Origin: Escherichia phage vB_EcoM_CRJP21
Length of the DNA stretch: 64,000 nucleotides
Sequence record: OQ708376.1
Direction: 5' to 3' (one strand)
The number at the start of each line of letters is the position of its first letter. Position 1 is the first letter of the stretch. Below the pieces are notes generated by a model, which had not been told where the DNA came from, made no database searches, and saw only the letters and a list, made by a program, of their open reading frames with translations. Position numbers and translations under genes: made by a program. Positions 767-50,412 of this stretch are shown piece by piece.

Positions 767-787
767 TTTCGTCATTAGGAGATGTAA

Positions 788-1753
788 GTGAAAAAGCTTG
801 ATTTAAATACAATTGCCGAAGAAGTTCTGGATGAATGTTTTTCTAATGAAGAAGTCAACACACTAGAAGCCTTAGATTTCGTTGAAGATAAAGATGAAAA
901 TGAAGGTAAAGTACAAAGCAGTTTCAAATATAATATTACACTTAAGCGACCACCAAATGTTTCCAATGAAGATCTAATTCGTGATATTCAAGCTGGTATC
1001 AATGTAAAGAAAAACACTGAACTGTTAGTTCGTTACAATTATGGACTTATTATTGATGTAGCAAGTAAATGTACTTGTTATATCCCATTTGAAGATAAGA
1101 TTTCATATGGTGTTGAGGGGTTCATGAGAGCACTAAAAACCTTTGATCTTAATAAGAATGTGAAGTTCATTACCTATGCTTCTTCTAGTATTTACATGAC
1201 AGTTTATAACGAAAGTTCTGACGCTAACTATATGGTACACTTCCCACGTTATATGAGTGTTCATAAGATCAAAGTAAAAAGATTCTGTCAGGAATATATG
1301 CGTAAACATGGTGTTCGCCCAACTCCTGAAATAATCTCAGAGGGTACTGGGATTGAGATTCAGCATGTTAATAACTGTTTGTTATTTCAAAGCGAATACA
1401 CTTCTCTGGATGCACCATTAGACGGTGTTACCGATGGTACACTAGGTGACATTATTCATTCACCTGCTTCTGATTTTAACCTCAATGTTGATAGTATTCG
1501 TGCACCTTTACGTTATGCTATCAATGAACTGACTAACGAATTGAGTACTAAAGAACGTGAGATTATCCAGCGTGTTCATGGTCTAGGTGAATATGAACCT
1601 GAAACGCTTCGTGAGATTGCTGATAATGGTTTTGTTGATGATAATGGAAAATATGTTAAATCCCGTTCATCAATACACCGAAAGTACAGTGAAGCTATGC
1701 AAAAGCTTAAGAAGTTAGTACTTGCAAAAGGGTACGAATACGAAGATTTCTAA
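788..1753 (+). CDS. sigma-70 family RNA polymerase sigma factor (regions 2, 3 and 4 recognisable)
   Basis: GTG start 7 nt after AGGAG; region 2-like YGVEGFMRALKTFDLNKNVKFITYA, region 3-like KHGVRPTPEIISEGTGIE, region 4-like LSTKEREIIQRVHGLGEYEPETLREIA; motif-level match from memory, no search run. Confidence 0.65.
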   Translation: MKKLDLNTIAEEVLDECFSNEEVNTLEALDFVEDKDENEGKVQSSFKYNITLKRPPNVSNEDLIRDIQAGINVKKNTELLVRYNYGLIIDVASKCTCYIPFEDKISYGVEGFMRALKTFDLNKNVKFITYASSSIYMTVYNESSDANYMVHFPRYMSVHKIKVKRFCQEYMRKHGVRPTPEIISEGTGIEIQHVNNCLLFQSEYTSLDAPLDGVTDGTLGDIIHSPASDFNLNVDSIRAPLRYAINELTNELSTKEREIIQRVHGLGEYEPETLREIADNGFVDDNGKYVKSRSSIHRKYSEAMQKLKKLVLAKGYEYEDF

Positions 1754-1760
1754 AGAACAA

Positions 1761-1788
1761 GGGTTGGCTTATGCCAACCTTTTTTTTA
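1761..1788 (+). terminator. intrinsic terminator (GGGTTGGC-TTAT-GCCAACC + T8)
   Basis: GC stem-loop followed by T-run directly after sigma gene stop. Confidence 0.7.
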
Positions 1789-2404
1789 TGGGATGAAGTA
1801 AAAGTTTGTGATATAATTATCTTGTACAATTCTGTTGGCATGATATTCATGTACCTGATCCACTCGAAAACGTAGAGGGCAGTTGAGCAGTCCGACAGTG
1901 CGAACAGCAAAAGAAACCCGTTAGATGTGGGCATAGTTTGAACCCCTCACGGCAATGCGGCTGTATAAAGAACCACGTTAGGATAGCTGGTGGTTCCTTG
2001 ATAGACATATAAGGATAACACCTTACGAATTATCTAAGGGAGAGTTATCGAATTTTGTACAGGAAAGTTGCGTCCAAAATTTGAGTACTCACATTAAGTA
2101 TTTGATTGCATAGATACTTAATGAAGATACACTATGTTTAAAAGTGTAGACCGTCATATGAAACTGAAGTAGAGAGAAACAGGATGACCCGCTTTCGCAC
2201 TCGTTATGAGTAATCTTCAATGCAATAGCTCTGATACCATCAGCGTCAAATTTCCCTCCTTGTGGGGGGAAGAAAAATCCCTTCCTCAAATCCCGTCAAT
2301 ATTAAAAGTCCTTGACAGTTATTAATCATTCGCGTAGAATACGTAGTATTAGAAGCGAACAGACATCTCGAAGAGATGGATGATTAACCATTAAGGAATA
2401 TCAA

Positions 2405-2842: not shown

Positions 2843-3631
2843 ATGAGCACTATAGATGAACTGATTCGACGGAATTCAAAATATTACCAACCATCAGAAA
2901 TTGTAGGTAACATTACCAAATCAGAGTTTGGTCCAAATACTCGAAAACTCATTCATGTAATGTCACGTGATGGCTTTAAATGTGATTGTTGCGGTGAATC
3001 TAATGTAGTATTCACTTTACACAAGCACAGTACTAAAGATCGTTATAAATTCAGACCTTATGTACTTAAAGGGAAACGCCTTGTACGCATGACGTTAGAC
3101 CATAATGTACTGGACTGTCTTCAGGGCGGTAATGATAAAGAGAACATGACTGCACTGTGTGAAGATTGTAACGCATTACGCCAGCATAAGTTTGCTGAAT
3201 ACAGTGAGTTTAAACACTGGTATAATAACGCGGATCGTTCAATCGAGCCTGACGTTAACTACTGCTTCATTGAGTACATTAAGAATGCCAAAGATACATA
3301 CATTCTTAAATCAATGTCACCTATTACCGTGTTTCCTGAGAACCTATTCACTACATTAAAGAATAGTTTTATTGTAGGTGATATTGATGCATTCAAGTAT
3401 TTTGACAAAGGTGCAAAACATTTTGAAATTCAATGTCTTAGTACTGCACTATGTGAACTCATTAAAATTTACATAAAAGAGTATTTGGGTATTGACAATG
3501 TACGTGTACCAGAGTATACTTTTTCTATTGAATTCGATTGTGAATCAATCAAAGAGTTTGGAATTCTTTTCAATAAACAAATAGAACTTGCAATTCAAAA
3601 CGAAATCAAGTACTATACTACTAACATTTAA
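2843..3631 (+). CDS. HNH endonuclease domain protein
   Basis: HNH-like motif TLDHNVLDCLQGGNDKENMTALCEDCN plus upstream CDCCGE cysteine pair; free-standing, not inside another gene. Confidence 0.6.
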   Translation: MSTIDELIRRNSKYYQPSEIVGNITKSEFGPNTRKLIHVMSRDGFKCDCCGESNVVFTLHKHSTKDRYKFRPYVLKGKRLVRMTLDHNVLDCLQGGNDKENMTALCEDCNALRQHKFAEYSEFKHWYNNADRSIEPDVNYCFIEYIKNAKDTYILKSMSPITVFPENLFTTLKNSFIVGDIDAFKYFDKGAKHFEIQCLSTALCELIKIYIKEYLGIDNVRVPEYTFSIEFDCESIKEFGILFNKQIELAIQNEIKYYTTNI

Positions 3632-12957: not shown

Positions 12958-13072
12958 TTTAACTTTGGGACAACCATTCTTATTATGATATAATGTTTTA
13001 TGTCATTCGATATAAATGACAACGGAACTATAAATATTATAGTAAAATTTATCTCTTATAGGAGTTATAAAA

Positions 13073-13456
13073 ATGGTTGATAAATGGAATAAGAAAGATC
13101 CATCACATGATGTTGATATTTCTGGTCTAGACAATGCACATAAGCACAAGTATCTAGATTCACTAGGTCTTCTAAAACCAGACCAAAGTCTTGCACATGA
13201 TCGTCCATCCCGTGAAAAAGCATTTAGCCTAGAATCACTAGGTCATGAGCTTAATCGTGTGTTTGAGGATCACCCAATCTATGTACGTGATATTATCGAG
13301 AAACTTAAAGTAACTCCTAAAGAGCACTTTAAAGCAACTGTACACTCTGCATTCCGTGCATTGCATGATTCTCTAAAGAAAACTCACAATCTTCGTAAAA
13401 TTCATGATGAAATCGTGAATGCAATCGAAAGTGAAAAACATAAGTTCAAGAAGTAA
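13073..13456 (+). CDS. hypothetical protein (127 aa); shares LDSLGLL motif with 13727-15214
   Basis: AGGAG RBS. Confidence 0.55.
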   Translation: MVDKWNKKDPSHDVDISGLDNAHKHKYLDSLGLLKPDQSLAHDRPSREKAFSLESLGHELNRVFEDHPIYVRDIIEKLKVTPKEHFKATVHSAFRALHDSLKKTHNLRKIHDEIVNAIESEKHKFKK

Positions 13457-16307: not shown

Positions 16308-16340
16308 AGGGTTGACTTCGGTCAGCCTTTTTTGTTATGA
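16308..16340 (+). terminator. bifunctional terminator/promoter element
   Basis: GGGTTGAC-TTCG-GTCAGCC + T6. Confidence 0.7.
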
Positions 16341-16369
16341 TGTTGATATTAACTACAGAGGATAAAGTA

Positions 16370-17011
16370 ATGACTAAGCAAGAAATATTCAAAACTTTAA
16401 TTGACATTTTGCGTCCATCAAAAACTCGTTGTGCGATGGAGTTTGATATTCCTTATGCTGAACGCGTAATCTTTCCACAAGTTAAAGCTGCTGGACTTAC
16501 TTTGCTTGGAATGGGGATGTACTCTGTAGTAGTTGAACATAAAAACTATCCTGGACGAGCATTTAAAGTAACCACTTCACGCTGGGATGGTTTTCGTGCT
16601 TATGCAAAGTACTGCATTGAAAACGCAGGAACCAAGTTTCTTCCAGTGATCTACAGTGCCAACGAACAAGGAAACTTTGGATGGTATGAGATGGACAAGT
16701 ACTATCCTATAATTAAACAAAAAAATAATTATGATGACTTTGTTAGTACTAAAATTGGAGATTTGTATTCGTATGCACATGCTGGTCAGTACGCAACTTC
16801 AGTGAATGATATGCGTGGAAATTCTGAAGAGATTGCTATTGCAACGGTCGCTGCTAACATCATGAAAGAGTTTCACGGGCGTTTTGTACCAGACATTCAT
16901 TCAAGTAATGTGATGATGGATAAAGATGGGAATGTATTCATTACTGATCCTCTTTCGTGTGATGTGCGTAGAGAAATACCAATTACTGAAGAAGATCCAG
17001 TTTTTTATTGA
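16370..17011 (+). CDS. hypothetical protein with possible kinase/phosphotransferase-like motif (DIHSSNVMMDKDGNVFITD)
   Basis: ORF track 16337-17011; ATG 16370 after GAGGA; motif-level resemblance only. Confidence 0.5.
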   Translation: MTKQEIFKTLIDILRPSKTRCAMEFDIPYAERVIFPQVKAAGLTLLGMGMYSVVVEHKNYPGRAFKVTTSRWDGFRAYAKYCIENAGTKFLPVIYSANEQGNFGWYEMDKYYPIIKQKNNYDDFVSTKIGDLYSYAHAGQYATSVNDMRGNSEEIAIATVAANIMKEFHGRFVPDIHSSNVMMDKDGNVFITDPLSCDVRREIPITEEDPVFY

Positions 17012-22375: not shown

Positions 22376-22390
22376 ATTGGAGATTTGTAT

Positions 22391-24034
22391 ATGATTGGAA
22401 GTTTTTGTTTTATTGACAAAAAAAAACGTTCAAAACCTTATATTATTGCTGAAAAGGTAAGAAATATATTTTCTAATATAAAAGAAATAAATTGTGACTT
22501 TATTGGTTTTGATATTAACTCAATACTTGAATGGGAAGGGGAAAAAACATATATTTTATATGAAATAAATGGTATAACAAAAAAGATTAGATATGATATT
22601 CTAAGACAACATTCTAATAATGGTTCTTTTCCGAATAAAAAACATTTTAATTCTGAAGAATTAAAAAAATGTAGTAAAGAAAAAAAAATATTTGATTATG
22701 ATAAGTCAATGAGATTGTCATCTTATTATTCAACACCAAATATAATAACGGTTGGTGATAAAGATATATCATATTTTACTGCTCTTCAGTTAGAAGCTAT
22801 ATCTCCATATATGCATTTTAACTCTATCACACCCACTGAATATTCGAAAAAAATATTGAATAAGATAAAAGAGTTTAAAAATGTTGAAGTTATTTTTTAT
22901 GGATTTTATGTATCATACTATTCAGAATGGAATAACAAAAAAACAAAAATAGTAATATCTTTTAATGAATATGTTACCTATCATATGACAATTGATGATT
23001 TTTTATATAGTTTAGATAGTAATATAACAGATATTCCTCGTTTTAATTATAATAATGAAAATTTTATTTATCGTATGATGTTTTTTGGATATGCTAATAA
23101 TCATACTTTTGATTTATCAAATTTAAACATTAAAAATTCCAAATCAATAATTAGAAAAAAATGTAAAGTATGTAAAAGTACTGATGTAGTGAGTATTGCA
23201 CAACATATTAGGAATCCTAGTTGCTCTGTATGTTTTTATAATACTGAAAAATTTAATTATAATGAATATGAAGCATGTGAAGAAGTTGTTAATGAGTATA
23301 AGGGATTTCATTATATGAATCATGATAATATAAAATTCATTCCAATTGGATGTTCTTACACACCATTTGAATGGTATGAAATAATAAAATATAAGGGTGG
23401 TGATTCTTTTATTGGTTTTTATATTAACAGTTCTTCAGAGTTTGACGGTAATAAGACGAAAATTTTATTAGATATTAATGGGGTAATATTAACTCCAACA
23501 ATTCTCAATTTTCTTGAGAGATACGAAAATATGTATAAAGACCTAATAAATCCAACAATATCTTTGGAAATTATGTCTAATAATAAATACAAACCCTCGG
23601 TTGCACGTCACAAAAGAATCTTTAGTCAACCTATTTTAACATTAGGAGGGATTATTTCATCAAATGATTTATCATCATATGAAATGATAGTCGCATTGTT
23701 CCTAATCAAAAATAATATTGATTTTCATTTTCAATTCAGAACTGAAGAATCAATAGAATTTATGGGAAATAGAAGATATGATTTTTATGTACCAGATTAT
23801 AATCTAATCATTGAAGTTGATGGTGCACAGCATACAAACTATTGCCCAATATTTCATAGAAGTGAAGAGTGCTTACAAAAACAAATGGAAATTGATGAAA
23901 TAAAACTTGAATTTGCAAAAGAATCAGGATATAATTTTGCTCGCATTAACTATGATGAATCTATTGTTGATGAACTTATTAATGTGATTAAAAAAATATC
24001 ATCTGAAAATAATCAGATTATTAGAACTTATTAA
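22391..24034 (+). CDS. Asn/Lys-rich protein with C-terminal PD-(D/E)xK-like nuclease motif
   Basis: ORF track 22385-24034; C-terminal RRYDFYVPDYNLIIEVDGAQH resembles Vsr/DUF559-type fold; motif-level only. Confidence 0.45.
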   Translation: MIGSFCFIDKKKRSKPYIIAEKVRNIFSNIKEINCDFIGFDINSILEWEGEKTYILYEINGITKKIRYDILRQHSNNGSFPNKKHFNSEELKKCSKEKKIFDYDKSMRLSSYYSTPNIITVGDKDISYFTALQLEAISPYMHFNSITPTEYSKKILNKIKEFKNVEVIFYGFYVSYYSEWNNKKTKIVISFNEYVTYHMTIDDFLYSLDSNITDIPRFNYNNENFIYRMMFFGYANNHTFDLSNLNIKNSKSIIRKKCKVCKSTDVVSIAQHIRNPSCSVCFYNTEKFNYNEYEACEEVVNEYKGFHYMNHDNIKFIPIGCSYTPFEWYEIIKYKGGDSFIGFYINSSSEFDGNKTKILLDINGVILTPTILNFLERYENMYKDLINPTISLEIMSNNKYKPSVARHKRIFSQPILTLGGIISSNDLSSYEMIVALFLIKNNIDFHFQFRTEESIEFMGNRRYDFYVPDYNLIIEVDGAQHTNYCPIFHRSEECLQKQMEIDEIKLEFAKESGYNFARINYDESIVDELINVIKKISSENNQIIRTY

Positions 24035-27767: not shown

Positions 27768-28430
27768 ATGATGAAATCAAAATTAGGTTTGTTTTATAAA
27801 AATTATTTTGTTAAACAACGTAAATTTATAAAAAAATATTTCTCTGGAGAGAAGTCTAGTCCTATAATCTTTAAAAGACCAAGTTATAATACTTACTTAG
27901 CTGGTGCTAAACAGTCTAAGAAATTTATTACTCTTTTACATAAAAACAACATTAAAGCTTCTTATGTTGAAACGAGAAGAAACTCATCAATAACTCCGGG
28001 TGATTTTATTGAGTACGGATGTTTCAATATTAAGTACAATGATAATACATACTTTATGGATATTGATTGTAATACATCCAATCTTTTTAACATTGTAGTA
28101 AATCCATTAAAACAATATAATGTTTATGGTGATTCTATTATCAAATTAATCAAAAACAAAGATGGCTTTGATTTTGAAATAAATGTTTTAGATGATAATT
28201 TTGACGAAGTACCCGTAAACCCTGAAATCTGTGATATTTTAAACAGTTTAAAAGGTAGTACCTACAATATATCATCTGATTTAATGTTTCAGTACTCATT
28301 AATCCATAAAGATATTGAAAAGTATATTGAATGCTCCAGAATTTTGAATTTTCTCTATGATGAATTTAAAAAGAGTTCTAAAATAACTGCATACACTTTG
28401 TACAATATTCCTAAAATGGTGAATCTTTGA
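27768..28430 (+). CDS. hypothetical protein (220 aa)
   Basis: AAGGAG RBS; converges with minus-strand array. Confidence 0.55.
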   Translation: MMKSKLGLFYKNYFVKQRKFIKKYFSGEKSSPIIFKRPSYNTYLAGAKQSKKFITLLHKNNIKASYVETRRNSSITPGDFIEYGCFNIKYNDNTYFMDIDCNTSNLFNIVVNPLKQYNVYGDSIIKLIKNKDGFDFEINVLDDNFDEVPVNPEICDILNSLKGSTYNISSDLMFQYSLIHKDIEKYIECSRILNFLYDEFKKSSKITAYTLYNIPKMVNL

Positions 28431-38229: not shown

Positions 38230-39432
38230 CTATTGTTGCCATAACTGCGTTGGCATTAATGTTAGTGTAGTAATACTATAAGTGCCATCTGGCAATCTAC
38301 CACCATTTCCATTCCAGCCACCACATGCATATAATTTATAATCTTTAGTAATTATTATGGTTCTGCTCCAATCTTTAGATGCCATAAGAACATTTTCATA
38401 ACCACCACTTATTGCACTAAGATTAAAAATATTCCAAGTTCTAACTAATGTATTAGTTCCATTACCTTCTTGACCATATGAGTTAGCACCACTACTTCTA
38501 ACATATGGTGCGTATTGTGCCATAGGTGCACCAATTGATGCATTTCCCATATTACTTGGACAAATAAAAGTACTGTACTTACTTACATCAACCGTGACCG
38601 ATGTGTTCCTAATTGGTGTTAGCTGATTTACCGATGTAGTCGTACCATTACCCGCTTGTCCAGTACTGTTAGCCCCGCTATAATATACAGACCCACCAGT
38701 AGTAAACCACCAAGTAACATCGTATGTAGTACTAATATGTTCTACATTACTAATCACGAATTTGTTCAAATATACAACAGAACTACCACCACATCCACTT
38801 TCACCAAAGTTATCCTTACCACAAAACCATGCATCTTTATTTGATTTGATATAGTGCGTTCCTTGTAATGAACATGCCATATGTGTAACTTCACCCATAT
38901 TAGTCATAACTGTGAGTGTAGGGATGGAATTTTTATTACCAGAGCCACATTCACCATTGGTATTTCTTCCACACGCAATTACTCTACCATCGGTTAATAA
39001 TATTCTAGTACTTTCACCTATATATACACTCTTGATCATATTAGCCATAACACCTATTTTATTAAATGCAACAGTAACATCAGTCCATGTTGTCAAATAA
39101 CCATTAACAGGTGTTGCATCTCCATAATCAGAAAATGCAGCCACAGACCCAGTGTAGTATATTTTATTATCCAAATCAATCATCAACGAACCTTGAACAC
39201 CAAGCCAAAAGGCTGCACAGTTCCTTGCAAGTACTGTAAATGACGAAACTGCTGCTGAATTCCCAAGACCAAATTGATACATGTTATTACTACCATAACC
39301 ATATAAAGTATTAGTTGGGTTATGTAGATACATACAGTTTGTATAATGTTGTTGTAAAACATCTGAGAACTCTACAGGTTCTGGACCTGGTGCAATATTT
39401 GCGTACTTAACCATTCTTCCAAAAGGTAACAT
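38230..39432 (-). CDS. RCC1-like beta-propeller repeat protein (paralog 9 of 9, first transcribed)
   Basis: N-terminus MLPFGRMVKYANIAPGP; motifs GSNNMYQFGLGN, GANSYGQEGNG; AAGGAGGGAAAT RBS with TATAAT-like box upstream. Confidence 0.7.
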   Translation of the reverse strand: MLPFGRMVKYANIAPGPEPVEFSDVLQQHYTNCMYLHNPTNTLYGYGSNNMYQFGLGNSAAVSSFTVLARNCAAFWLGVQGSLMIDLDNKIYYTGSVAAFSDYGDATPVNGYLTTWTDVTVAFNKIGVMANMIKSVYIGESTRILLTDGRVIACGRNTNGECGSGNKNSIPTLTVMTNMGEVTHMACSLQGTHYIKSNKDAWFCGKDNFGESGCGGSSVVYLNKFVISNVEHISTTYDVTWWFTTGGSVYYSGANSTGQAGNGTTTSVNQLTPIRNTSVTVDVSKYSTFICPSNMGNASIGAPMAQYAPYVRSSGANSYGQEGNGTNTLVRTWNIFNLSAISGGYENVLMASKDWSRTIIITKDYKLYACGGWNGNGGRLPDGTYSITTLTLMPTQLWQQ

Positions 39433-43585: not shown

Positions 43586-44570
43586 TTAAACACAAGTAGA
43601 CAGGGGAAGCTCCTAGTGAACAACCTTTATGTACAGGCGAATTGTTAAAATTCAGCCTGGACAAATGCGATCACTAGGATTCTCCCCAGGCTAAACCCCG
43701 TAATCATAGGTAGTCATAAGTAATCATATATAAACATTTATATGAGCACCGTAGAATCACAGAATGATTATATATGATTCAGTACTGATTAGTATAGACA
43801 AGAATTCTCAAGAATGCACGGGAAGGATTCAGTACTGATATGCCACTAAGTAGGCAGAGGAAGTCTGCCGTACTTTGTAGTTTCCAAGCTCCTTTTCCAT
43901 TTTTCAAATTACATCAAATGTAATCAAAAGTAATCACGCAATGATTAGTACTGAATTATTACTTTCACCTTAATTACAATTACCCTTTTACCCTTCGGGG
44001 TAAAATTCAATTACCCCTTGAGGCTCCAGCAAAAAGTTGGTTAGTACTCCATCCTAAATCTCGATCCTAAAAATTTTGGAGTACCTATGAAATAAAAGTT
44101 GGATCTTCGAAAGTTGAAATTTACGTTGGGACGTTTATGATTTGTGGGATATAATGATGTTTGTAGACGGGTAGTTCTCAAGAATATCAGTACTGAAAGA
44201 TGAAAGAAAGTTATTGACTTTATGATTCAGTACTGTATAATGTTCTACATAGGGTGATGAGTTGCTGCGAACAATTCATTTACTCTACCTCCTGTCGTGA
44301 GACAGTACAGAAAAGATAGTTCCTCCTGTGGTGGTACATCTTTTTGAACCTCATATGAAAATCGTAATAACAGTACTGATATTAACAGAATGGTGTCAGT
44401 ACTGATTTTAATCTAAAGCATTATGCCACCAGCACAAGCTGGTGGATTCCCTCTAACAGTATTCAGTACTACATGATGGTCTTCATCCTCCTAGGGTAAC
44501 ATAGTGAGGGCTATGATGGCAGTACTGAATACTCCCTTTCAAAAGATAGATCTATGGTATAGTACTGACG

Positions 44571-44759
44571 GATTTTGGGCGTAGTTACCCTGGATGGATT
44601 TTGGGCGTAGATATGTCTAGCCCTCCAGAAGTCTGGAAGTAAAGATGGCTATCCATCTAGACGGCTAAACGGCTAGATTTCTGGATGGCTGGATGGCTAG
44701 ACGTTTGGACGGCTAAACGGCTAGATGGTTACACGTCTGGAAGTATAGACGGCTAAATC
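44571..44759. repeat. iteron-like short direct repeat cluster (GGATTTTGGGCGTAG x2; ACGGCTAAACGGCTAGAT x2; GGATGGCT x2; GTCTGGAAGTA x2)
   Basis: direct repeats read in ORF-free region. Confidence 0.7.
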
Positions 44760-45384
44760 AAAATTTTATTTTGTTTTTTCCAATAGTTCCCCTACCGCGT
44801 GGGGATAGTTTCCCCGCAGTATCTGGTGTTAGATTTTTCTGAATCTGGAATCATTATCTTATAAACTGGGGGCAATGTCAACGGCCTGGCCGGATATTTT
44901 TAAAAATTTTTTCAGTACTGAATTTTGGGCGTAACTATGCACCCGGTGGGCTTGAGTCTTTCTCGACTTGATGGAACTATTATACAGTACTGGAAAAATA
45001 AAGCAATACCCTGGAAGCAAAAAAGTTTTAATTAATTTGCTTGCTATCCTGGGCCGGACTATGGTACTATATTTCAGTACTGAGAAAGTGCGTTTACCTG
45101 CTAGGGTGCGGGAGTGTATCCTTTTTTTATATCTTGAATTTTGGACGGATCTTCCCACCCCCTGGGGTATCCGCTTTCTCGCGTCTATGTAGTAATTATA
45201 CGCTTTTTCAGGATCAAGTCAATACCTAAAAACAAAATAATTGAAAATAATTTAACGCGTTTAAACGGCCTGTAAAGCCCTGGAATGATTGGAATGGTGC
45301 AAATGTATAGCTTATGTGTATTAATGCGTTAGAATGCGTCTGAGGACGTTTTACGGGGTATAGGGATGATTTAGTGGATTGATT

Positions 45385-45471
45385 CAGTACTGAATAATAG
45401 TACTCCTATATAGAAAGATAGTTCCCCTGGATGATTGCAGTACTGAATAATAGTACTCCTATATAGAAAGA
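45385..45471. repeat. 34 bp direct repeat x2 (CAGTACTGAATAATAGTACTCCTATATAGAAAGA) separated by 19 bp
   Basis: two identical copies at 45385-45418 and 45438-45471. Confidence 0.8.
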
Positions 45472-45502
45472 AAACTATTTTAAAAGTATTTGTAGAAAGT
45501 AC

Positions 45503-45561
45503 TTGCACCGTACTGATAAAAGCGTATAATGTTTTACATCGAGAGCGGGAACACTTCCCGC
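45503..45561 (+). promoter_or_regulatory. promoter (TTGCAC-N16-TATAAT) + 5' stem-loop AGCGGGAAC-N-TTCCCGCT
   Basis: first of about 25 promoter/5'-hairpin cassettes. Confidence 0.6.
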
Positions 45562-45585
45562 TACACATTAAGAGAGATTAAAACG

Positions 45586-45948
45586 ATGGCGACTCAAATC
45601 AATAAAATCATGCTTAACCTGGTAAACTTCCGCGATGAGATGAAAGGTCTTCCGGCTGAAACTGTAAAAATTCACATTGCAGCTTATCGGGAACTTATTG
45701 CAATGTTGCCGCTTAAGCGTGAACAATACGCCGCTACTTTGATGCTGGATTCAATGATCCATATAATGATCTCAAATGATTTGACGATGGTTTATCAGTA
45801 TATGGGCGAAAATTTCGCGGTGTGTAGTAAGCCAGTACCAGGGATGGCAACAACTGAGGAATTGCACGGCTTAAACTTAAAACAAGATGCATGGGATAAT
45901 ATGCCTCGTTTCCTGGTATGGGCTGACAGTGGCAAAATTTACAAATAA
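45586..45948 (+). CDS. hypothetical protein (120 aa)
   Basis: ORF track 45529-45948; ATG 45586 downstream of promoter and hairpin. Confidence 0.55.
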   Translation: MATQINKIMLNLVNFRDEMKGLPAETVKIHIAAYRELIAMLPLKREQYAATLMLDSMIHIMISNDLTMVYQYMGENFAVCSKPVPGMATTEELHGLNLKQDAWDNMPRFLVWADSGKIYK

Positions 45949-45962
45949 GTTTAATAAAGTAC

Positions 45963-46021
45963 TTGCAAACTATGTTTAATGGCGTATAATGTTTTACATC
46001 AGGTGGGGAATAGTTCCCCAC
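45963..46021 (+). promoter_or_regulatory. promoter TTGCAA-N16-TATAAT + 5' stem-loop GTGGGGAA-TAGT-TCCCCAC
   Basis: consensus hexamers; hairpin at predicted +5 to +25. Confidence 0.6.
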
Positions 46022-46041
46022 TATATAAGAGGATTAAAAAA

Positions 46042-46281
46042 ATGGCTAAATCAAAAATGTTCTTAGGTCACAAAAACAAAACTCATTGGAATGTAAGCCT
46101 TTGGATTAATAACGATGAGGGATTGTATCGGTTGGCCCAGGACTTTATTAACGATAGCACTAATCGCAATGATGCGGCCCGTCATATGATGTTATTTTTA
46201 GAACAGACTGGACAAGATAAAACACCGGACGGATTCAAATATAGCACTACTGCGATCCGTGCGGCGATGGTTGGAATGTAA
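46042..46281 (+). CDS. hypothetical protein (79 aa)
   Basis: ATG 46042 after GAGGAT. Confidence 0.55.
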   Translation: MAKSKMFLGHKNKTHWNVSLWINNDEGLYRLAQDFINDSTNRNDAARHMMLFLEQTGQDKTPDGFKYSTTAIRAAMVGM

Positions 46282-46291
46282 TAGAATTTAT

Positions 46292-46330
46292 TTAAAGTAC
46301 TATCATTTTTTTGCGATAGTACTTTATAAT
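46292..46330 (+). promoter_or_regulatory. palindrome-containing promoter-like element (AAAGTACTATC-N10-GATAGTACTTT then TATAAT)
   Basis: inverted repeat + -10 hexamer; no good -35. Confidence 0.4.
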
Positions 46331-46367
46331 AGTGTTTTATTCATACACCAACGATAAGGGCAACAGC

Positions 46368-46634
46368 ATGAAAATTAAGTATTTTGCGACGCGTGAACAA
46401 GCTCGGATCGCCGCACGCCAGGACGGGGCAACGTTTAAAGATATGGGCGTACAATCGGAACGTGGTAAACGTTGGGCCATTGTAAAGCGTAGTACCGCCA
46501 GATCATTACAGTACTGGTTAGCGGCCTTAAAAAGTCCCGATAGTGTATCGCGTCGAGTGGTAGAAATAAAGCTCGACCGAAAGGGCAACCGCGTGACCGT
46601 GTACCGTACTAAAAAGATTGCAGTACTTGAATAA
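46368..46634 (+). CDS. hypothetical protein (88 aa); paralog of 58345-58740
   Basis: MKIKYFATREQARIAARQDGATFKDMG vs MITKFYATREAARIVAREEGAAFKDMG. Confidence 0.6.
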   Translation: MKIKYFATREQARIAARQDGATFKDMGVQSERGKRWAIVKRSTARSLQYWLAALKSPDSVSRRVVEIKLDRKGNRVTVYRTKKIAVLE

Positions 46635-46642
46635 AAAGTACT

Positions 46643-46700
46643 TGCAAACTATGTTTAATGGCGTATAATGTTTTACATCGAGAGCGGGAACTCTTCCCGC
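46643..46700 (+). promoter_or_regulatory. promoter TTGCAA-N15-TATAAT + 5' stem-loop GCGGGAAC-N-TTCCCGC
   Basis: near-identical to cassette at 45963. Confidence 0.6.
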
Positions 46701-46721
46701 CTATAACCTGGAGTAATGAAA

Positions 46722-46952
46722 ATGACTAATATGTATATGACTGAAGTTAAAACCGTAAAAGATACTACCACGAATAAAACTACTTACTTACAGCGGATCT
46801 GTGGTGTATGGCAACGTATCAGCAAATCAAAGTACTTTAAATTAACATCATATGCAAACCGTTCGGATTCATTCAGTACTGAAATAAAAGGTAATAAAGT
46901 ACACCAATACGGCACTTATTATTATTATAGCCTGGACGCGATTGCAGTATAA
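46722..46952 (+). CDS. hypothetical protein (76 aa)
   Basis: ORF track 46716-46952; ATG 46722 has better spacing from GGAG. Confidence 0.5.
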   Translation: MTNMYMTEVKTVKDTTTNKTTYLQRICGVWQRISKSKYFKLTSYANRSDSFSTEIKGNKVHQYGTYYYYSLDAIAV

Positions 46953-47202
46953 GCAGTTTACAAATCTTTACAATTGCCGGTATTGACTTATTTTGTCAGT
47001 ACTGGCATAATGTATTCATTGGCAGATAAGCCGTAGCCCATAGGGTGCGGGAGTGTATCTATAGAAAAATTAGTTTAGTATAGTTACAATTGTGCACCCG
47101 GTGGGTTAGCTGTTGTCATGGGGTATATTATACCAGTACTTGATAATGCTGTCAATACTTTTTTTTTACTATTCAGTACTGAAAACTATTTTTAAAAAGT
47201 AC

Positions 47203-47348
47203 TTGCAAACTATGTTTAAAGGCGTATAATGTTTTACATCAGGACGGGGAACGAAATAAGTAACTTCCCGTTAAGTAGCCCAGGAGTAAGGCACACGAAA
47301 AACTCCCCTGATAAAATAGTTTGACAAATGTTTTTAAAAGCGTATAAT
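47203..47348 (+). promoter_or_regulatory. tandem promoters (TTGCAA..TATAAT and TTGACA..TATAAT) flanking about 80 nt structured leader
   Basis: two consensus promoters about 118 bp apart; leader holds CGGGGAAC...CCCCG-type hairpins; second copy at 57123-57267. Confidence 0.55.
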
Positions 47349-47380
47349 ACTTACATCAACTACTGAATGAGGGTTACAAA

Positions 47381-47992
47381 ATGAAAACTATCACTACTAC
47401 TACTTATGTTATGGCTTTTTCTGAATTGAACGCAGAACAACAAACGTCAGCTATCGAACTGGTTCGGGAACGTGAAAAAAACTCAAACGACAATTATTTT
47501 TCTGAAAGTGAAATTGAATACTATAAAGAAACAGTACTACCGGAATATGGCATTAATGACGCTGAAATACAATTCAGTGGTTTTTGGTCCCAGGGTGACG
47601 GTGCATCAATCAGTACTGACCACGTTGACGCAGTGAAGTTTTTACGCAAGGTAAGAGCATTAACTAAGTATCGCTCAATCCGTCACTTGCTGAATGAAGA
47701 TGATTTGGCGATGAGTGTAAAACGTTCGCACTCCCACTACTCGCATGAGAATACTGTAAGCGGGTACATTGAATCGGCTTACACTGATTTAACCGCAAAA
47801 CAAGAAACGTTAGTTAATGAGCTTGAGGAACTACTCACTGAAACTATTCGTGAATTGTCCCGCAAGTTGTACCGTGATTTAGAGAATGCATATGAGGATC
47901 AATTCACTACTGAAAACATTACGGCACTGATTGAGGGTAACGAATATCAATTCAATGTTATTGATGGCGTAGTAGAATCAATCGAATATTAA
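47381..47992 (+). CDS. hypothetical protein (203 aa)
   Basis: ORF after tandem promoter element; GAGGGT RBS. Confidence 0.6.
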   Translation: MKTITTTTYVMAFSELNAEQQTSAIELVREREKNSNDNYFSESEIEYYKETVLPEYGINDAEIQFSGFWSQGDGASISTDHVDAVKFLRKVRALTKYRSIRHLLNEDDLAMSVKRSHSHYSHENTVSGYIESAYTDLTAKQETLVNELEELLTETIRELSRKLYRDLENAYEDQFTTENITALIEGNEYQFNVIDGVVESIEY

Positions 47993-48005
47993 TTTAAAAA
48001 GTACT

Positions 48006-48075
48006 TGCAAACTAAGTTTAAAAGCGTATAATACTTTATATCGAGAGCGGGAATAGTTCCCGCTACTAATGAGGA
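48006..48075 (+). promoter_or_regulatory. promoter TTGCAA..TATAAT + 5' stem-loop AGCGGGAATAGTTCCCGCT
   Basis: cassette architecture. Confidence 0.6.
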
Positions 48076-48084
48076 ATACTACAA

Positions 48085-48249
48085 ATGAATACTTTTACCT
48101 TCGCTCAATTGAACGCCCTGGATGTATTGTCTGATGCTTTGCGGGATGCAACTGAAAGCGGTTTATTTGACAATGTTGACATTCACCCTGATGTAATTAA
48201 TAATTTTTGTGATGCTATCGCAGAAGTACTGGAAGATCTAAAAAAATAA
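48085..48249 (+). CDS. hypothetical acidic protein (54 aa)
   Basis: GAGGAAT RBS after promoter/hairpin cassette; below track cutoff. Confidence 0.45.
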   Translation: MNTFTFAQLNALDVLSDALRDATESGLFDNVDIHPDVINNFCDAIAEVLEDLKK

Positions 48250-48258
48250 TAGAAAGTA

Positions 48259-48319
48259 CTTGCAATTAGTTTTCAGTACTGTATAATGGTTTACATCAAA
48301 GGGAGAAATGGTTCTCCCT
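48259..48319 (+). promoter_or_regulatory. promoter TTGCAA-N18-TATAAT + 5' stem-loop GGGAGAA-ATGG-TTCTCCC
   Basis: cassette architecture. Confidence 0.6.
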
Positions 48320-48337
48320 GGTAATGAGGAAAATACA

Positions 48338-48559
48338 ATGGCTAATATCACTACTCTTTCCCAACTGGAAGCACTGGTTAAATCTATGCGGGAACATGCT
48401 GACAAAATCGGCGTACAAGATCCAGCCGTTTGCTTCTGCGACGAATTGAATGATGATACCCTGGTAATAGCAGAAGTCCAGGACGTTTCTAACTATTCCT
48501 CGCGTTACACTGGCGGCGTAGCAAATAAAGGTGACTTCTGTTTATACCTTACAAAATAA
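48338..48559 (+). CDS. hypothetical protein (73 aa)
   Basis: ORF track 48308-48559; ATG 48338 after GAGGAAAAT. Confidence 0.55.
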   Translation: MANITTLSQLEALVKSMREHADKIGVQDPAVCFCDELNDDTLVIAEVQDVSNYSSRYTGGVANKGDFCLYLTK

Positions 48560-48563
48560 CAAC

Positions 48564-48593
48564 GCGGGGAGATAATAACTCCCCGTTACTTTT
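48564..48593 (+). terminator. intrinsic terminator (CGGGGAG-N-CTCCCCG + T-run)
   Basis: hairpin + TTACTTTTT. Confidence 0.6.
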
Positions 48594-48727
48594 TCAGTAC
48601 TGAATCATTTAATAGACGGATCTCGGCACCCGGTGGGTTAGTGACTGTTTCGTCTTGATGTAGTAATTATGCCAGTACTGGATGCACTTGTCAACAATTA
48701 TTTTCCAAATACTTTTTATTAAAATAC

Positions 48728-48783
48728 TTGCAATTAGTTTTTAAACGCGTATAATGTTTTGCATAGGGGGAGCGGTTCCCCTG
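48728..48783 (+). promoter_or_regulatory. promoter TTGCAA..TATAAT + 5' G-rich stem-loop
   Basis: cassette architecture. Confidence 0.55.
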
Positions 48784-48802
48784 GTAACTAAGGAATAATA
48801 AA

Positions 48803-49039
48803 ATGCTTGAACAAATCAAATCAACGTCTTCGAATGTAACGGGAACGGTAGCACACTTTACTAGTGATGAATCGCGGGGCGTTCCCTATTGTGCTGTACA
48901 TGTAAACACTGAGGGTAACTACTGGTTTACGGTTTACGGATCATATTCATTTGGACGGCCTGGACATCAAAAAATTCTGGATAAAGTACAACCAACGGGT
49001 AAAAATATCACTGCCGAAATGTTTTATAAAAAATCATAA
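48803..49039 (+). CDS. hypothetical protein (78 aa)
   Basis: AAGGAAT RBS. Confidence 0.55.
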   Translation: MLEQIKSTSSNVTGTVAHFTSDESRGVPYCAVHVNTEGNYWFTVYGSYSFGRPGHQKILDKVQPTGKNITAEMFYKKS

Positions 49040-49044
49040 AGTAC

Positions 49045-49103
49045 TTGCAATTAGTTTTTAGTACTGTATAATATTTTACATCGCAAGGGGAAACGGTTTC
49101 CCC
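49045..49103 (+). promoter_or_regulatory. promoter TTGCAA-N16-TATAAT + 5' stem-loop GGGGAAAC-GG-TTTCCCC
   Basis: cassette architecture. Confidence 0.6.
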
Positions 49104-49123
49104 TGGTAACTAAGGATAATCAA

Positions 49124-49423
49124 ATGAAAATTGCAATCATCGCCCTGGCTTTATCTGTTTCCTCTTTCGCTGTTAATGCGTCATTAGATGTAAGTAGTGA
49201 AAAATTCATTCAGTGCACTGTTGCAATGACCGATGAAAGAACTGGCGAGATTGTATTAAAGGATTTAGAGATCCAGCCGGAAGCATTTAAAAACGGCCCG
49301 TTCCATGAAGAAGACGAAAACGGTAGCACGACAATTTATTATGATGCCAGTACTAAACGCGGTTCGGTCACTGTAATGGATACCGAGAAAGTAACTCATA
49401 CCGGCGTTATTAATTGCCGTTGA
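49124..49423 (+). CDS. secreted protein (signal peptide)
   Basis: N-terminus MKIAIIALALSVSSFAVNAS. Confidence 0.55.
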   Translation: MKIAIIALALSVSSFAVNASLDVSSEKFIQCTVAMTDERTGEIVLKDLEIQPEAFKNGPFHEEDENGSTTIYYDASTKRGSVTVMDTEKVTHTGVINCR

Positions 49424-49444
49424 TAGATACTACGGGGTAACATC

Positions 49445-49675
49445 ATGACTAAGCGAATTGTTTTACTTAACGAAAGCAGTACTACACAACTACTTAACGC
49501 CGTGCATTATGATATTGAAACGAGCGTTAATCTTATCAGTACTGTAGTTCTGTTGGACACTGGAAAGGTAGCCAATGATAAAGCGATTGCAGGTATACTA
49601 ACGGATCTTGTGCCTGGTAGCAGTGCACCAATAACGTTAAATGGTAAAGTGTTTAATATTTTACTCACTGATTAA
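49445..49675 (+). CDS. hypothetical protein (76 aa)
   Basis: ORF in track; GGGG-rich RBS. Confidence 0.45.
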   Translation: MTKRIVLLNESSTTQLLNAVHYDIETSVNLISTVVLLDTGKVANDKAIAGILTDLVPGSSAPITLNGKVFNILLTD

Positions 49676-49681
49676 GTACAT

Positions 49682-49709
49682 AGCCCACCTGGTGGGCTTT
49701 TTTGTTTTT
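49682..49709 (+). terminator. intrinsic terminator (AGCCCACC-TGGT-GGGCT + T-run)
   Basis: hairpin + T6GT5. Confidence 0.7.
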
Positions 49710-49757
49710 GTAGTATCGTAGTACTGAGATACTTTGAAAATAGTTTTAAAAAAGTAG

Positions 49758-49785
49758 TTGACATTACCACAGAAAAGCGTAGAAT
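49758..49785 (+). promoter_or_regulatory. promoter TTGACA-N16-TAGAAT with about 120 nt leader
   Basis: hexamers read; long leader before ATG 49909. Confidence 0.5.
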
Positions 49786-49908
49786 GTATTACATCAAGAC
49801 GGGGAGCACTAAGTAGACCGCCAGTAAGTCGAACGAAAAACTGGACACGTCGAGAAAACTTTGATACACTAATAAACGTAAACTAAACTTTAATTGAGGA
49901 TTTATAAA

Positions 49909-50391
49909 ATGGCTAATGTAAAATCATTCATCAAAGCACTGGTAGCAAATGAAACTAACGTCGCGGCTGAGATCCTGGCTGAACTGGATAACGATACCAT
50001 GAAAGCGGTACGCAACAATTTTAACATTGCGTACAGTGAAGCTAAAGAACTGCAAGCCAAAAAGGTAGCAGAACTGGAAGAACAGAAAAAAGCCCGTGAA
50101 GCAGAACTACAAGCAACAATTGAAAGTATTCAGGCGGCAGTGTCTGGATTGGATCTGGAAGTGGTTGTAGAAATGGCACATAAAGCCCTGGCGGTTAAGT
50201 ACGGTGAAGATAAGCCGGAATCTAAACCTAAAAAATGGATTCAAGAACGTGTTACTGTAGTACTTGATAACGGTGAAGAACATTTGATTCCTGTACGCGG
50301 TAACTGCATTGCGGTAGTACTGGACGCTATCAAAGAAAGCGGTATGACTCGCGAGGAATGGATCGAAGCTCATCGCAAAGTTGAAGCATAA
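49909..50391 (+). CDS. hypothetical protein (160 aa)
   Basis: ORF track 49894-50391; ATG 49909 after GAGGAT. Confidence 0.55.
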   Translation: MANVKSFIKALVANETNVAAEILAELDNDTMKAVRNNFNIAYSEAKELQAKKVAELEEQKKAREAELQATIESIQAAVSGLDLEVVVEMAHKALAVKYGEDKPESKPKKWIQERVTVVLDNGEEHLIPVRGNCIAVVLDAIKESGMTREEWIEAHRKVEA

Positions 50392-50412
50392 CAATTAAAG
50401 TACTGAATCACT

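Follow-up and report, generated by a model that had tools for sequence, protein, structure and literature searches.

A sigma factor encoded by a phage raises the question of which promoters it would take the host RNA polymerase to, and at what stage of infection. We addressed this for the gene on the + strand at positions 788..1753 of the 64,000-nt stretch analysed here (the window). The gene is confirmed but already known: its product shares 99–100% identity with a protein of 121Q/PBECO4/SP27-like jumbo coliphages annotated as "RNA polymerase sigma factor", and dozens of public genomes carry the annotation, among them record E9.1, whose sigma coding sequence lies at coordinates matching 788..1753. 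The original prediction of a phage sigma factor thus adds nothing new as stated, the gene being publicly annotated, and it missed that annotation, as well as an insertion in region 4.2 and the fact that region 2.3 has lost its tryptophan pair. Passages in reviews describe such sigmas as a hallmark of jumbo phages that lack a polymerase of their own and depend on that of the host. Published accounts, in the passages concerned, stay at the level of annotation, with a 2026 review still writing 'likely', and we found no functional study of these sigmas in the literature searched.

A sigma-70-family protein with regions 2, 3 and 4

The gene encodes 321 amino acids and runs from a GTG start to a TAA stop (1751–1753). 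Position 788 is the earliest possible start in this frame, the first in-frame ATG being codon 113, and a Shine-Dalgarno sequence read from the DNA, AGGAG (776..780, +), lies 7 nt 5′ of the GTG. The first 18 residues (MKKLDLNTIAEEVLDECF, 788–841, +), a conserved predicted helix, are almost invariant across homologues down to 32% identity, which supports translation from 788, and the CBB and Munch orthologues likewise start with GTG. The start codon originally proposed is therefore borne out.

Whole-protein matches are decisive in identifying the ORF as a true phage sigma-70-family sigma. Its sole PHROG match is PHROG 351 'RNA polymerase sigma factor' (2e-60); TIGR02393 RpoD_Cterm matches at 6e-25 and a PDB RpoD at 5e-17, and TIGR02937 passes its cut-off (44.7 versus 42.9). 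Profile searches for the single sigma-70 regions placed region 3 clearly above the Pfam gathering cut-off (37.8 bits versus 25.3, E = 2e-9), whereas region 2 (22.9 versus 24, E = 7e-5) and region 4 (23.9 versus 24.1, E = 3e-5, profile positions 4–28 of 50 only) fell marginally short. Region 2 can nonetheless be aligned residue by residue to sigma-70 373–456, with 2.1/2.2 and the F-x-T-Y-A motif kept, and the second half of the region 4 helix-turn-helix, the recognition helix, follows an insertion and aligns with RpoS. Structure prediction agreed with a sigma fold: the top Foldseek match in the PDB is E. coli sigma-S (5ipl_F, E = 5.7e-10), and the best 50 PDB matches listed are nearly all group 1 or 2 sigma chains. 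TM-scores are low (~0.27) because the domains are freely placed in the AF2 model, which is of moderate quality only (overall pLDDT 61.8, 12 sequences).

The protein falls short of the tests for the established sigma groups. No Sigma70_r1_1 or r1_2 Pfam match was found in it, and it scores far below the RpoD equivalog cut-offs (TIGR02393, 88 versus 354 bits; NF004208, 64 versus 555), so the label 'rpoD', used in some records, is a name rather than an equivalog call. The RpoS (group 2) cut-off is missed as widely (TIGR02394, 70.5 versus 378.7 bits), with the tryptophan pair and four of the −35-contact residues changed, and the group 3 profiles are also missed (TIGR02479, 55.6 versus 189.6; TIGR02980, 56.6 versus 234). 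A significant region 3 sets it apart from ECF (group 4) sigmas, and its match to PHROG 351 only from the T4 gp55 late sigma family.

Domain layout and unusual features

The original prediction described an unusual acidic N-terminal extension of about 60 residues. The acidic segment is real, but spans about 40 residues (aa 1–40, 788..907, +), with 14 D/E against 3 K/R (net −11, pI 4.05); residues 41–60 carry net positive charge. Nor is it unusual: the first 50 residues of E. coli RpoS, with 17 D/E and 2 K/R, are more acidic, and group 1 and 2 sigmas typically have an acidic region 1.1 at the N-terminus. Homology with the RpoS N-terminus was considered and rejected (BLASTP E = 0.53, not significant), leaving an analogy of charge only. 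Within this part of the protein, a helix at residues 6–18 is predicted at low confidence by AF2, and residues 25–50 form a variable acidic linker.

Beyond it, a region 1.2-like segment (aa 44–72, 917..1003, +) can be aligned to RpoS from region 1.2 into the start of region 2.1, with weak sequence similarity and a helix at 60–68 predicted with pLDDT ~85. Region 2 (aa 75–150, 1010..1237, +; Pfam match over aa 80–140, and alignments to sigma-70 and RpoS) includes the core-binding 2.1/2.2 segment DKISYGVEGFMRALKTFD, the best conserved part of the protein, and a −10/melting segment, FITYASSSIYM, in which Ser-Ser stands in place of the sigma-70 W433/W434 pair. The residues with which sigma-70 reads TGn are also replaced (H455 by Tyr, E458 by Val). 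Region 3 (aa 160–230, 1265..1477, +) has its Pfam match over aa 162–226. Region 4 (aa 240–313, 1505..1726, +), matched by Pfam over aa 251–279 in the first half of the profile, is predicted as a helix-hairpin-helix (pLDDT ~86 over aa 250–315) and followed by a conserved C-terminal tail, KGYEYEDF.

The unusual features of this sigma are thus not in its N-terminus; they are the region 4.2 insertion, the lost region 2.3 tryptophan pair and the −35-contact changes. The insertion (DNGFVDDNGKYVK, aa 279–291, 1622..1660, +) sits in the turn of the helix-turn-helix as a predicted beta-hairpin, with strands at 282–283 and 288–289; its size is ~8–11 residues, depending on whether RpoS (a gap of 11 columns) or cellular sigmas (8 columns) are aligned. 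It is followed by the recognition helix SRSSIHRKYSEAMQK (aa 292–306, 1661..1705, +, from the RpoS alignment). This helix keeps one of the five residues that we take to be the −35 contacts of sigma-70 (R584, E585, R586, R588 and Q589): R584 is retained as R293, and the other four are changed. Loss of the tryptophan pair is a trait shared with group 3 sigmas (FliA/WhiG, SigB/F/G).

A small clade of jumbo-phage sigmas

We collected distant orthologues by tblastn against phage records and by an exhaustive profile search. The clade, covered in part by PHROG 351, is small and sharply separated, with 19 representatives at E ≤ 1e-30 among 1.84 billion and a fall to generic-sigma scores beyond them. 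All 17 aligned representatives carry the region 4.2 insertion and lack the tryptophan pair, which is lost family-wide. The clade features, drawn from our alignment A3 rather than from a curated family definition, are an insertion of the form G-phi-x-D-x-x-G-x-x-phi-x-S and small residues where the tryptophan pair would be, both present here; an N-terminal motif, LNLDxIxEEVLDExF, occurs in about half of the members. Family alignments show little or no variation in the F-x-T-Y-A motif, with Y130 and A131 at least 90% conserved in A3, and the gene is syntenic across phage genera.

Its closest counterparts are the sigmas of RaK2-like ('group 2') jumbo phages, namely 121Q gp167 and those of PBECO4 and phAPEC6, Sharanji RpoD (WNN14470.1), RaK2 ORF244, and those of GAP32 and CBB (CBB_513). 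The sigmas of 121Q-like phages are the same protein, with no difference at the level of sequence, and the other group 2 sigmas are orthologues at 31–45% identity; an early-region context is common to the group. The published passages on these sigmas mention neither the insertion in the helix-turn-helix nor the missing tryptophan pair, nor a link to a box-specific regulon. Among cellular sigmas, E. coli RpoS shares its domain order, size (321 versus 330 aa) and acidic N-terminus, and is its best structural match. At the same time, the phage sigma is only 25% identical to it.

A presumed early operon with host-type promoters

The expectation that abundant promoters in this DNA are of the host sigma-70 type held: the window contains 15 perfect TTGACA-N16-18-TATAAT sites against 0.21 expected. 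The sigma operon begins after a divergent junction with a TTGACA-N16-TATAAT promoter 104 nt upstream of its first gene, in which TGG directly precedes the −10 hexamer, and further TTGACA promoters lie inside the operon. An intrinsic terminator after the sigma gene (1759..1792, +; a 10-bp stem with 5 GC pairs, then a T-run) closes the transcription unit. From these host-type promoters and the terminator we infer that sigma is an early gene. The CBB paper, in the part concerned, likewise places its sigma gene in the early region (PMC5259590).

The TTGACA of the host, exact or nearly so, persists in the early promoters of CBB, EJP2 and Munch. A second early-type class, ACTTGCA-N15-18-TATAAT, has 16 sites against 0.1 expected. 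A AGTACTTGCA-N17-TATAAT class is found in the terminal repeat, where the genes around it are very small, a setting that suggests immediate-early expression, ahead of any phage sigma.

A distinct promoter class before replication genes

Target promoters were first described as not obvious. We found a distinct class, with the consensus tGrGACAa-N13-TGnTATAAT preceded by an A-rich tract. In 344 kb, the + strand has 17 copies of the pattern G[GA]GACA-N13-16-TGnTAYAAT and the − strand none, where 0.2 would be expected, and a position weight matrix (PWM) scan returned 41 matches on the + strand and none on the − strand, against 1–2 expected per strand, with three of the matches in the window. All sites point along the direction of the genes. 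They precede the genes for SSB, primase, topoisomerase II and exonuclease and the DNA polymerase operon, and also tRNAs (tRNA-Ser), four paralogous RNAs and a gp55-like late sigma gene. We refer to them as candidate middle promoters.

One of the three predicted sites in the window directly follows the sigma gene (1781..1818, +; PWM 28.0), with the box GGGATGA at 1790–1796, TGA at 1809–1811, TATAAT at 1812–1817 and a predicted start near 1824; RaK2 shows the same arrangement after its own sigma gene. Another (TTTGGGACAA ... TGATATAAT, 12958..12995, +; PWM 29.0) lies 78 nt upstream of the ORF at 13073..13456, and a weaker middle-promoter-like site (TTGGGACG ... GGGATATAAT) lies at 44119..44156 (+; PWM 16.8). 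Three points speak against a role of the phage sigma at these sites: the box retains the GACA core of TTGACA; the −10 element is a perfect host consensus with TGn, which host sigma-70 could use without a −35 element; and the phage sigma has neither the tryptophan pair nor the residues with which sigma-70 reads TGn.

Late genes have their own, T4-type promoter system. The motif ATAAATA, which occurs 22 times in intergenic DNA where 2 are expected, stands upstream of the genes for capsid, sheath, tube and baseplate, and TATAAATA is depleted genome-wide (15 versus 67 expected). The gp55-like late sigma is a separate gene (E9.1 186103–186942; phrog_12791, 3e-154).

The box varies with the recognition helix across phages

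In orthologous promoters of other lineages, the box differs in step with the recognition helix of the phage's own sigma. The 121Q-like phages combine the box GrGACAA with the helix SRSSIHRKY, Munch TTGGGACA with SRTSLHRCY, EJP2 TTGAGACA with NRCTIHRRY, RaK2 TTGAACAA with VRGTLHYKF, CBB TGAAACG with SKATLSRRY, and XaC1 TGAAACA with SKPTLSRRY. The CBB paper, in the part concerned, independently reported a 'divergent RpoD-like' class that precedes DNA-synthesis genes and has TGAAACG as its −35 box (PMC5259590). As a candidate box for the present phage, TGAAACG was rejected: it matches the window twice against 2.0 expected, a chance level which indicates that the 121Q-like phage has a different box. 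The XaC1 box was forecast from its helix before inspection, and the forecast was correct, in this one case. XaC1 also has its own, non-host −10 region (tgTTCTATACT).

The pattern does not simply follow overall relatedness, because Munch sigma is closer to that of CBB (45% identity) than to that of 121Q (37%); RaK2 and 121Q share 45%. The fit of residues to bases is imperfect, as RaK2 has His at the R588 position, yet A where 121Q has G, and with six lineages compared another co-evolving phage protein would yield an identical pattern. Read with these limits, the cross-phage comparison suggests that the sigma steers host RNA polymerase to the middle promoters.

A structured RNA beside the gene

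A predicted structured non-coding RNA (1819..2300, +) lies outside the sigma gene and starts just downstream of it as a candidate sigma target transcript. It is ~480 nt long and strongly covarying, with four paralogues per genome. Single-sequence folding of 1824–2300 gave an uninformative z = −1.45, the structure being clear only from the alignment. Rfam returned no match at gathering thresholds over the whole window, where ARAGORN found no tRNA or tmRNA. Relaxing Rfam to E ≤ 10 on 1700–2450 gave chance-level matches only, with no 6S, RNase P, intron, GOLLD, ROOL or HEARO, and nhmmer found no match between this RNA and the RNA-seq-defined ncRNA001 and ncRNA002 of PA5oct. This family is probably a more surprising object than the sigma, and it would be sigma-driven.

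A proposed middle tier of a transcription cascade

We think it reasonably probable that the sigma redirects host polymerase to a phage promoter class, as originally proposed, and that it forms the middle tier of a cascade. The phage is a 121Q/PBECO4-like (Asteriusvirus) jumbo coliphage without an RNA polymerase of its own, and its early operon, with host sigma-70-type promoters, would yield the sigma early. Conserved region 2.1/2.2 would then bind host core polymerase, displacing sigma-70, and the sigma would take the enzyme to the middle class, defined by an A-rich tract, the box tGrGACAa, a 13-nt spacer and TGnTATAAT. The altered region 4.2, with its helix SRSSIHRKY and the beta-hairpin in the turn, would read the box. 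The predicted regulon would comprise SSB, primase, topoisomerase II, exonuclease, the DNA polymerase operon, tRNAs, the four RNAs and the gp55-like gene, so that the cascade would pass from host sigma-70 to the phage sigma and on to the gp55-like sigma at T4-type ATAAATA late promoters. The acidic N-terminus may do what region 1.1 does, namely prevent free sigma from binding DNA and gate the channel of the polymerase. Somewhat short of an even chance, and more tentative, is a fuller version in which a 'winged' region 4.2 with a re-specified recognition helix reads genus-specific boxes, the −10 staying host-like, in the middle of a three-sigma cascade, with a regulon that includes the multi-copy ~480-nt RNA, an RNA that may serve in replication initiation or host takeover.

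The host-like −10 element also fits an arrangement that we regard as unlikely but worth weighing. T4 middle promoters combine an extended host −10 with a phage box through sigma appropriation by MotA and AsiA. By analogy, host sigma-70 would read TGnTATAAT here, another MotA-like protein, possibly with an AsiA-like partner, would bind the box, and the phage sigma would serve other promoters, such as AGTACTTGCA-N17-TATAAT in the terminal repeat. The host consensus with TGn fits this arrangement. So does the phage sigma itself, which has neither the tryptophan pair nor the sigma-70 residues for reading TGn, and so does the second, non-consensus early-type class ACTTGCA-N15-18-TATAAT. Against it, local tblastn found no AsiA-like ORF (best E = 0.85, a weak negative obtained with an approximate T4 AsiA query), and the E9.1 record, over ~1–347 kb of 368 kb, has no MotA or anti-sigma annotation. 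The AGTACTTGCA promoters look immediate-early, the XaC1 −10 is non-host as well, and the box co-varies specifically with the sigma recognition helix, including the one correct forecast.

Three further roles were considered and rejected. That the sigma merely competes for host core polymerase or a host factor, displacing sigma-70 with no promoter class of its own, seems improbable to us: region 2.1/2.2 is indeed the best conserved part, and a T7 gp0.7-like kinase in the window, annotated as an inhibitor of host transcription, adds to a theme of host shut-off, but a pure decoy would not need the F-x-T-Y-A motif or the region 4.2 helix. Both are maintained; within a genus the DNA-reading parts are conserved, and from one genus to another they change along with the box. 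Many phage sigmas act late, among them T4 gp55 and SPO1 gp33/34, but a late role at structural genes is very improbable for this one given the separate gp55-like sigma, itself behind a middle-class promoter, the ATAAATA promoters before structural genes and the depletion of TATAAATA. Hardly credible is a recent capture of a host rpoS or rpoD copy without a phage-specific role. RpoS-like architecture and length, the sigma-S structural match and a proposal of secondary acquisition from cells in a passage of Iyer et al. speak for it, but the low identity to RpoS, the small separate clade, the insertion and missing tryptophan pair in every aligned representative and the synteny across genera speak against it.

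Placed among known phage systems, the proposed logic of an early phage sigma that replaces the host sigma and reads phage promoters resembles that of Bacillus phage SPO1 gp28 and coliphage phiEco32 gp36, through which host polymerase is turned to middle or middle/late promoters. Both are smaller proteins, not known to have a full region 3 or an N-terminal region, and in the present phage the −10 remains like that of the host, with phage specificity confined to the −35 box. The middle class resembles T4 middle promoters in joining a host-like, extended −10 to a phage box in place of the −35 before replication genes, and the gp55 homologue with its ATAAATA promoters recalls T4 late transcription by gp55/gp33/gp45. 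T4, however, remodels host sigma-70 rather than replacing it, whereas the 121Q-like phage carries a complete sigma.

Overall, the sequence data give a testable hypothesis, with a defined promoter class, a recognition helix that predicts the box in six lineages and an unusual helix-turn-helix insertion. The temporal programme of a large and therapeutically used group, comprising coliphages, Klebsiella phages and Erwinia phages, thereby becomes testable in vitro, and these phages would offer natural orthogonal sigma/promoter pairs for the enterobacterial core polymerase.

Identity and start of the sigma factor gene

The phage sigma gene (788–1753, + strand, 321 aa) lies within the first 6 kb of the window, a stretch that is 99.4% identical to Escherichia phages SP27 and vB_EcoM_E9.1 and 97–99% identical to 121Q, PBECO4, phAPEC6 and Sharanji, all jumbo myoviruses of ~350 kb in the Asteriusvirus/RaK2-like group. 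E9.1 served as the annotated reference (its position 300565 is window position 1); we examined its annotation over ~347 kb of the 368-kb record and made whole-genome counts on a pseudo-genome joining E9.1 1–300564 to the window.

Whole-protein models identify the ORF unambiguously as a sigma factor. PHROG 351, one such model, matches at 2e-60, RpoD_Cterm at 6e-25 and PDB sigma-70 chains at 1e-14 to 5e-17, and TIGR02937 is also above cut-off. In Pfam, region 3 is above cut-off and regions 2 and 4 (E ~1e-5 to 1e-4) fall slightly below curated scores, and the best Foldseek match of the predicted structure is E. coli sigma-S. With these matches, those to regions 2 and 4 included, the sigma-70-family assignment of the original prediction stands. 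Its GTG start is likewise borne out: AGGAG lies at 776–780 (+), and the start at 788 is supported by an N-terminus (MKKLDLNxIxEEVLDECF) that is near-invariant even in relatives of only 32% identity; GTG is the start codon of the CBB and Munch orthologues as well. The gene is already known as an annotation, since E9.1 carries a CDS labelled 'RNA polymerase sigma factor' at the matching coordinates, and tblastn finds 20 phage records with at least 99% identity, nearly all of the matches listed being annotated as sigma.

Unusual features of the phage sigma

Right in outline, the original prediction erred on which feature is unusual. The acidity of the N-terminus that it singled out is real (14 acidic and 3 basic among residues 1–40), but an acidic N-terminus is the normal look of group 1 and 2 sigmas, and E. 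coli RpoS (sequence checked against PDB 5ipl/6kj6), which matches the phage sigma in length and domain order, is comparable, with 17 acidic and 2 basic in its first 50 residues. A search for significant sequence similarity between the two N-termini found none. The first 18 residues of the phage sigma are conserved across genera, are predicted at low confidence to form an amphipathic helix and precede a variable acidic linker; the conserved motif is shared by about half of the wider clade. We infer a region 1.1-like role, in which this N-terminus would auto-inhibit DNA binding and gate the polymerase channel.

Judged from alignments, the unusual features are instead the region 4.2 insertion, the recognition helix and region 2.3. 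An insertion of some 8–11 residues lengthens the turn of the region 4.2 helix-turn-helix (ETLREIA-DNGFVDDNGKYVK-SRSSIHRKY in alignments), which is why the Pfam region 4 match ends halfway; AF2 predicts the insertion as a beta-hairpin within the best-modelled part of the protein (pLDDT ~86). The recognition helix SRSSIHRKY aligns with sigma-70 T583–E591 (TRERIRQIE), and among the sigma-70 residues that contact the -35 element (R584, E585, R586, R588 and Q589), R584 alone is retained. In region 2.3, Ser-Ser occupies the positions of sigma-70 W433/W434, and the alignment of orthologues with RpoS shows no variation at F427, T429, Y430 and A431. Searched exhaustively with a profile, 1.84 billion representatives yield just 19 proteins at E <= 1e-30, beyond which scores fall to those of generic sigmas. 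The insertion is present and the tryptophan pair absent in all 17 aligned clade representatives; the cellular sigmas scoring next have no insertion and keep the pair. By these comparisons the phage sigma belongs to a small and distinct clade carried by phages.

Early, middle and late promoter classes

The + strand operon whose final gene encodes sigma starts past a divergent junction and is closed by an intrinsic terminator (1759–1792). Because the operon is headed by a TTGACA-N16-TATAAT promoter, with TGG immediately upstream of the -10 hexamer, and contains additional TTGACA promoters, the simplest view is that sigma is expressed early, by host sigma-70, in agreement with a proposal in the CBB paper (PMC5259590). 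Host-type promoters are abundant in the window and the terminal-repeat region, as the original prediction had noticed: TTGACA-N16-18-TATAAT occurs 15 times in the window against 0.21 expected, and 31 times in the non-redundant genome against 1.1 expected, always on the + strand. A related early-type class, aaaAGTACTTGCA-N17-TATAATgttttacat, has 16 sites against 0.1 expected. At ~45500–63700 (the terminal repeat, E9.1 1–20 kb) it is repeated before many very small ORFs as aaaAGTACTTGCA-N17-TATAATgttttaCAT with a GGGAA...TTCCC 5' hairpin behind it, a layout that resembles an immediate-early cassette.

Several other features were seen in the window. The palindrome CAGTACTG occurs 59 times against 0.9 expected (for example at 4151, 8065 and 19052, and many times within 43780–49544). 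Genome-wide, AGTACT occurs 883 times, mostly within genes, against 117 expected from base composition, and GGTACC 0 times against 31 expected. In early promoters AGTACT(G) has a fixed place, directly before the -10 (TTGACA-N9-AGTACTG-TATAAT) or, alternatively, directly before the -35 (AGTACTTGCA), and the repeats may serve as sites of binding or modification. A T7 gp0.7-like protein kinase (16337–17011, +; phrog_15752 'inhibitor of host transcription', 1e-98) from the same early region as sigma is a possible second means of host-transcription shut-off. A minus-strand block of tandem paralogues, mostly ~400 aa, spans ~28411–39432 (nine ORFs, 298–433 aa) and continues for ~3 kb in E9.1, where 13 of its 14 CDS are annotated as RCC1-like 'regulator of chromosome condensation' (phrog_4219).

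The original prediction found target promoters not obvious; listing every TGnTAYAAT in the genome revealed a recurrent upstream box and with it a distinct middle class, with the consensus A-rich tract, tGrGACAa, 13 nt, TGaTATAATg. The strict pattern has 17 + strand and 0 - strand sites (0.2 expected), and scanning with a PWM derived from 20 sites finds 41 matches on the + strand and none on the - strand (1–2 expected per strand), almost all within 53–314 kb, outside the terminal repeat. Three lie in the window, all +: 1781–1818, 12958–12995 and a weaker match at 44119–44156. Sites precede both SSB copies, primase, topoisomerase II, the RecB-like exonuclease, the DNA polymerase operon, the Lon-like protease, the head protease, tRNA-Ser and a T4 gp55-like late sigma gene (phrog_12791, 3e-154). 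Structural genes, before which the original prediction suggested looking for a distinct motif, carry ATAAATA-type motifs instead. TATAAATA is depleted four-fold genome-wide, which would fit a functional late promoter of the T4 type. The motif sets thus define early, middle and late classes. The full-length phage sigma stands out as the candidate to read the middle class, and rather probably does so; redirecting host RNA polymerase to phage promoters, as originally proposed, is its most likely role.

Box and recognition helix across phages

Reading of the box by host sigma-70 predicts one box shared by phages of related hosts, whereas reading by the phage sigma predicts that box and recognition helix change together. 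To our knowledge, sigma-70 region 4.2 is essentially identical among the enterobacterial hosts. We compared the replication modules of RaK2, CBB, Munch, XaC1 and EJP2 at orthologous promoters (SSB, primase, exonuclease and others), where layout and spacing are kept in all and the box is lineage-specific. Box and helix pair as GrGACAA with SRSSIHRKY in 121Q-like phages, TTGGGACA with SRTSLHRCY in Munch, TTGAGACA with NRCTIHRRY in EJP2, TTGAACAA with VRGTLHYKF in RaK2, TGAAACG with SKATLSRRY in CBB and TGAAACA with SKPTLSRRY in XaC1. The XaC1 TGAAAC box was predicted beforehand from its CBB-like helix and is present in 6/6 sites; the XaC1 -10 region is of its own type (tgTTCTATACT). Early promoters near the CBB, EJP2 and Munch sigma genes keep TTGACA or a near match. 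The box/helix grouping differs from that by overall sigma similarity: Munch sigma is 45% identical to CBB and 37% to 121Q, yet Munch has box and helix in common with 121Q, and RaK2 sigma is closest to 121Q (45%), yet both differ.

This co-change lends good circumstantial support to the phage sigma as box reader, although it could also arise through another co-evolving phage protein. One such route is a MotA/AsiA-like mechanism on host sigma-70, possible given that the middle promoters resemble those of T4 (host-type extended -10 plus phage box) and that the phage sigma lacks the TGn-reading residues of sigma-70 (H455 is Tyr, E458 Val). A weak test by tblastn found no AsiA-like ORF, and the ~347 kb of the E9.1 record examined hold no MotA/AsiA-like annotation. 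We consider this mechanism unlikely and favor, with some confidence, reading of the box by the phage sigma.

A structured RNA beside the sigma gene

The middle promoter at 1781–1818 leads into ~600 nt without an ORF, which hold a structured non-coding RNA of ~480 nt (1819–2300, +). Its conservation far exceeds that of the adjoining sigma gene: EcMJ and JNE01 match the window at 93–96% identity in this DNA and at 57–60% in the sigma protein. The genome has four paralogues (~57.4, 112.0, 190.8 and 302.4 kb; in E9.1 ~57345–57900, 111970–112560 and 190750–191300), each directly behind a middle-class promoter (PWM score 25–38). Related copies are found in 61 records of RaK2-like phages (2–5 per genome, mostly 4–5; family loci L022–L040), across nine host genera, either unannotated or overlain by tiny hypothetical ORFs. 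RaK2 has the same order of sigma, own-type promoter and RNA (L002:3494-3951). The small 'hypothetical protein' genes overlying the RNA, RaK2 ORF245 (L002:3767-3973) and E9.1 CDS0557-0560 (window ~1764–2324), are probably spurious calls.

An alignment of 18 copies from IMG/VR (60–93% identity) supports a 16-helix fold with 81 pairs, of which 48 show compensatory changes. Cells are paired in 96.2% of cases, against 80.0% in shuffles (0/500 reach 96.2%) and 38–44% when partners are slid, and the covariation score is 0.469 against 0.05–0.08. Rfam 15 holds no match, and the RNA-seq-defined ncRNA001 and ncRNA002 of PA5oct have no detectable relation to it. We speculate that structured transcripts initiated from middle promoters at four scattered sites may resemble origin or primer RNAs such as those of T4 oriF/oriG and ColE1 RNA II. 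Free-standing HNH/homing endonuclease genes lie at 2843–3631, ~540 nt downstream of the RNA, and at 22385–24034 (both +), with no consistent link to the other RNA copies.

Implications

Sigma factors are part of the definition of 'group 2' jumbo phages given by Iyer et al. 2021, who suggest that the factors recruit the host polymerase (PMC7824862). The Sharanji, phAPEC6 and fEgEco12 papers go no further than listing the sigma gene, and the CBB paper describes three promoter classes, including a TGAAACG class also found in GAP32, but does not assign that class to the phage sigma (PMC5259590). To these our analysis adds a concrete, testable regulon and recognition model for the phage sigma, together with a neighboring RNA family that deserves its own look.
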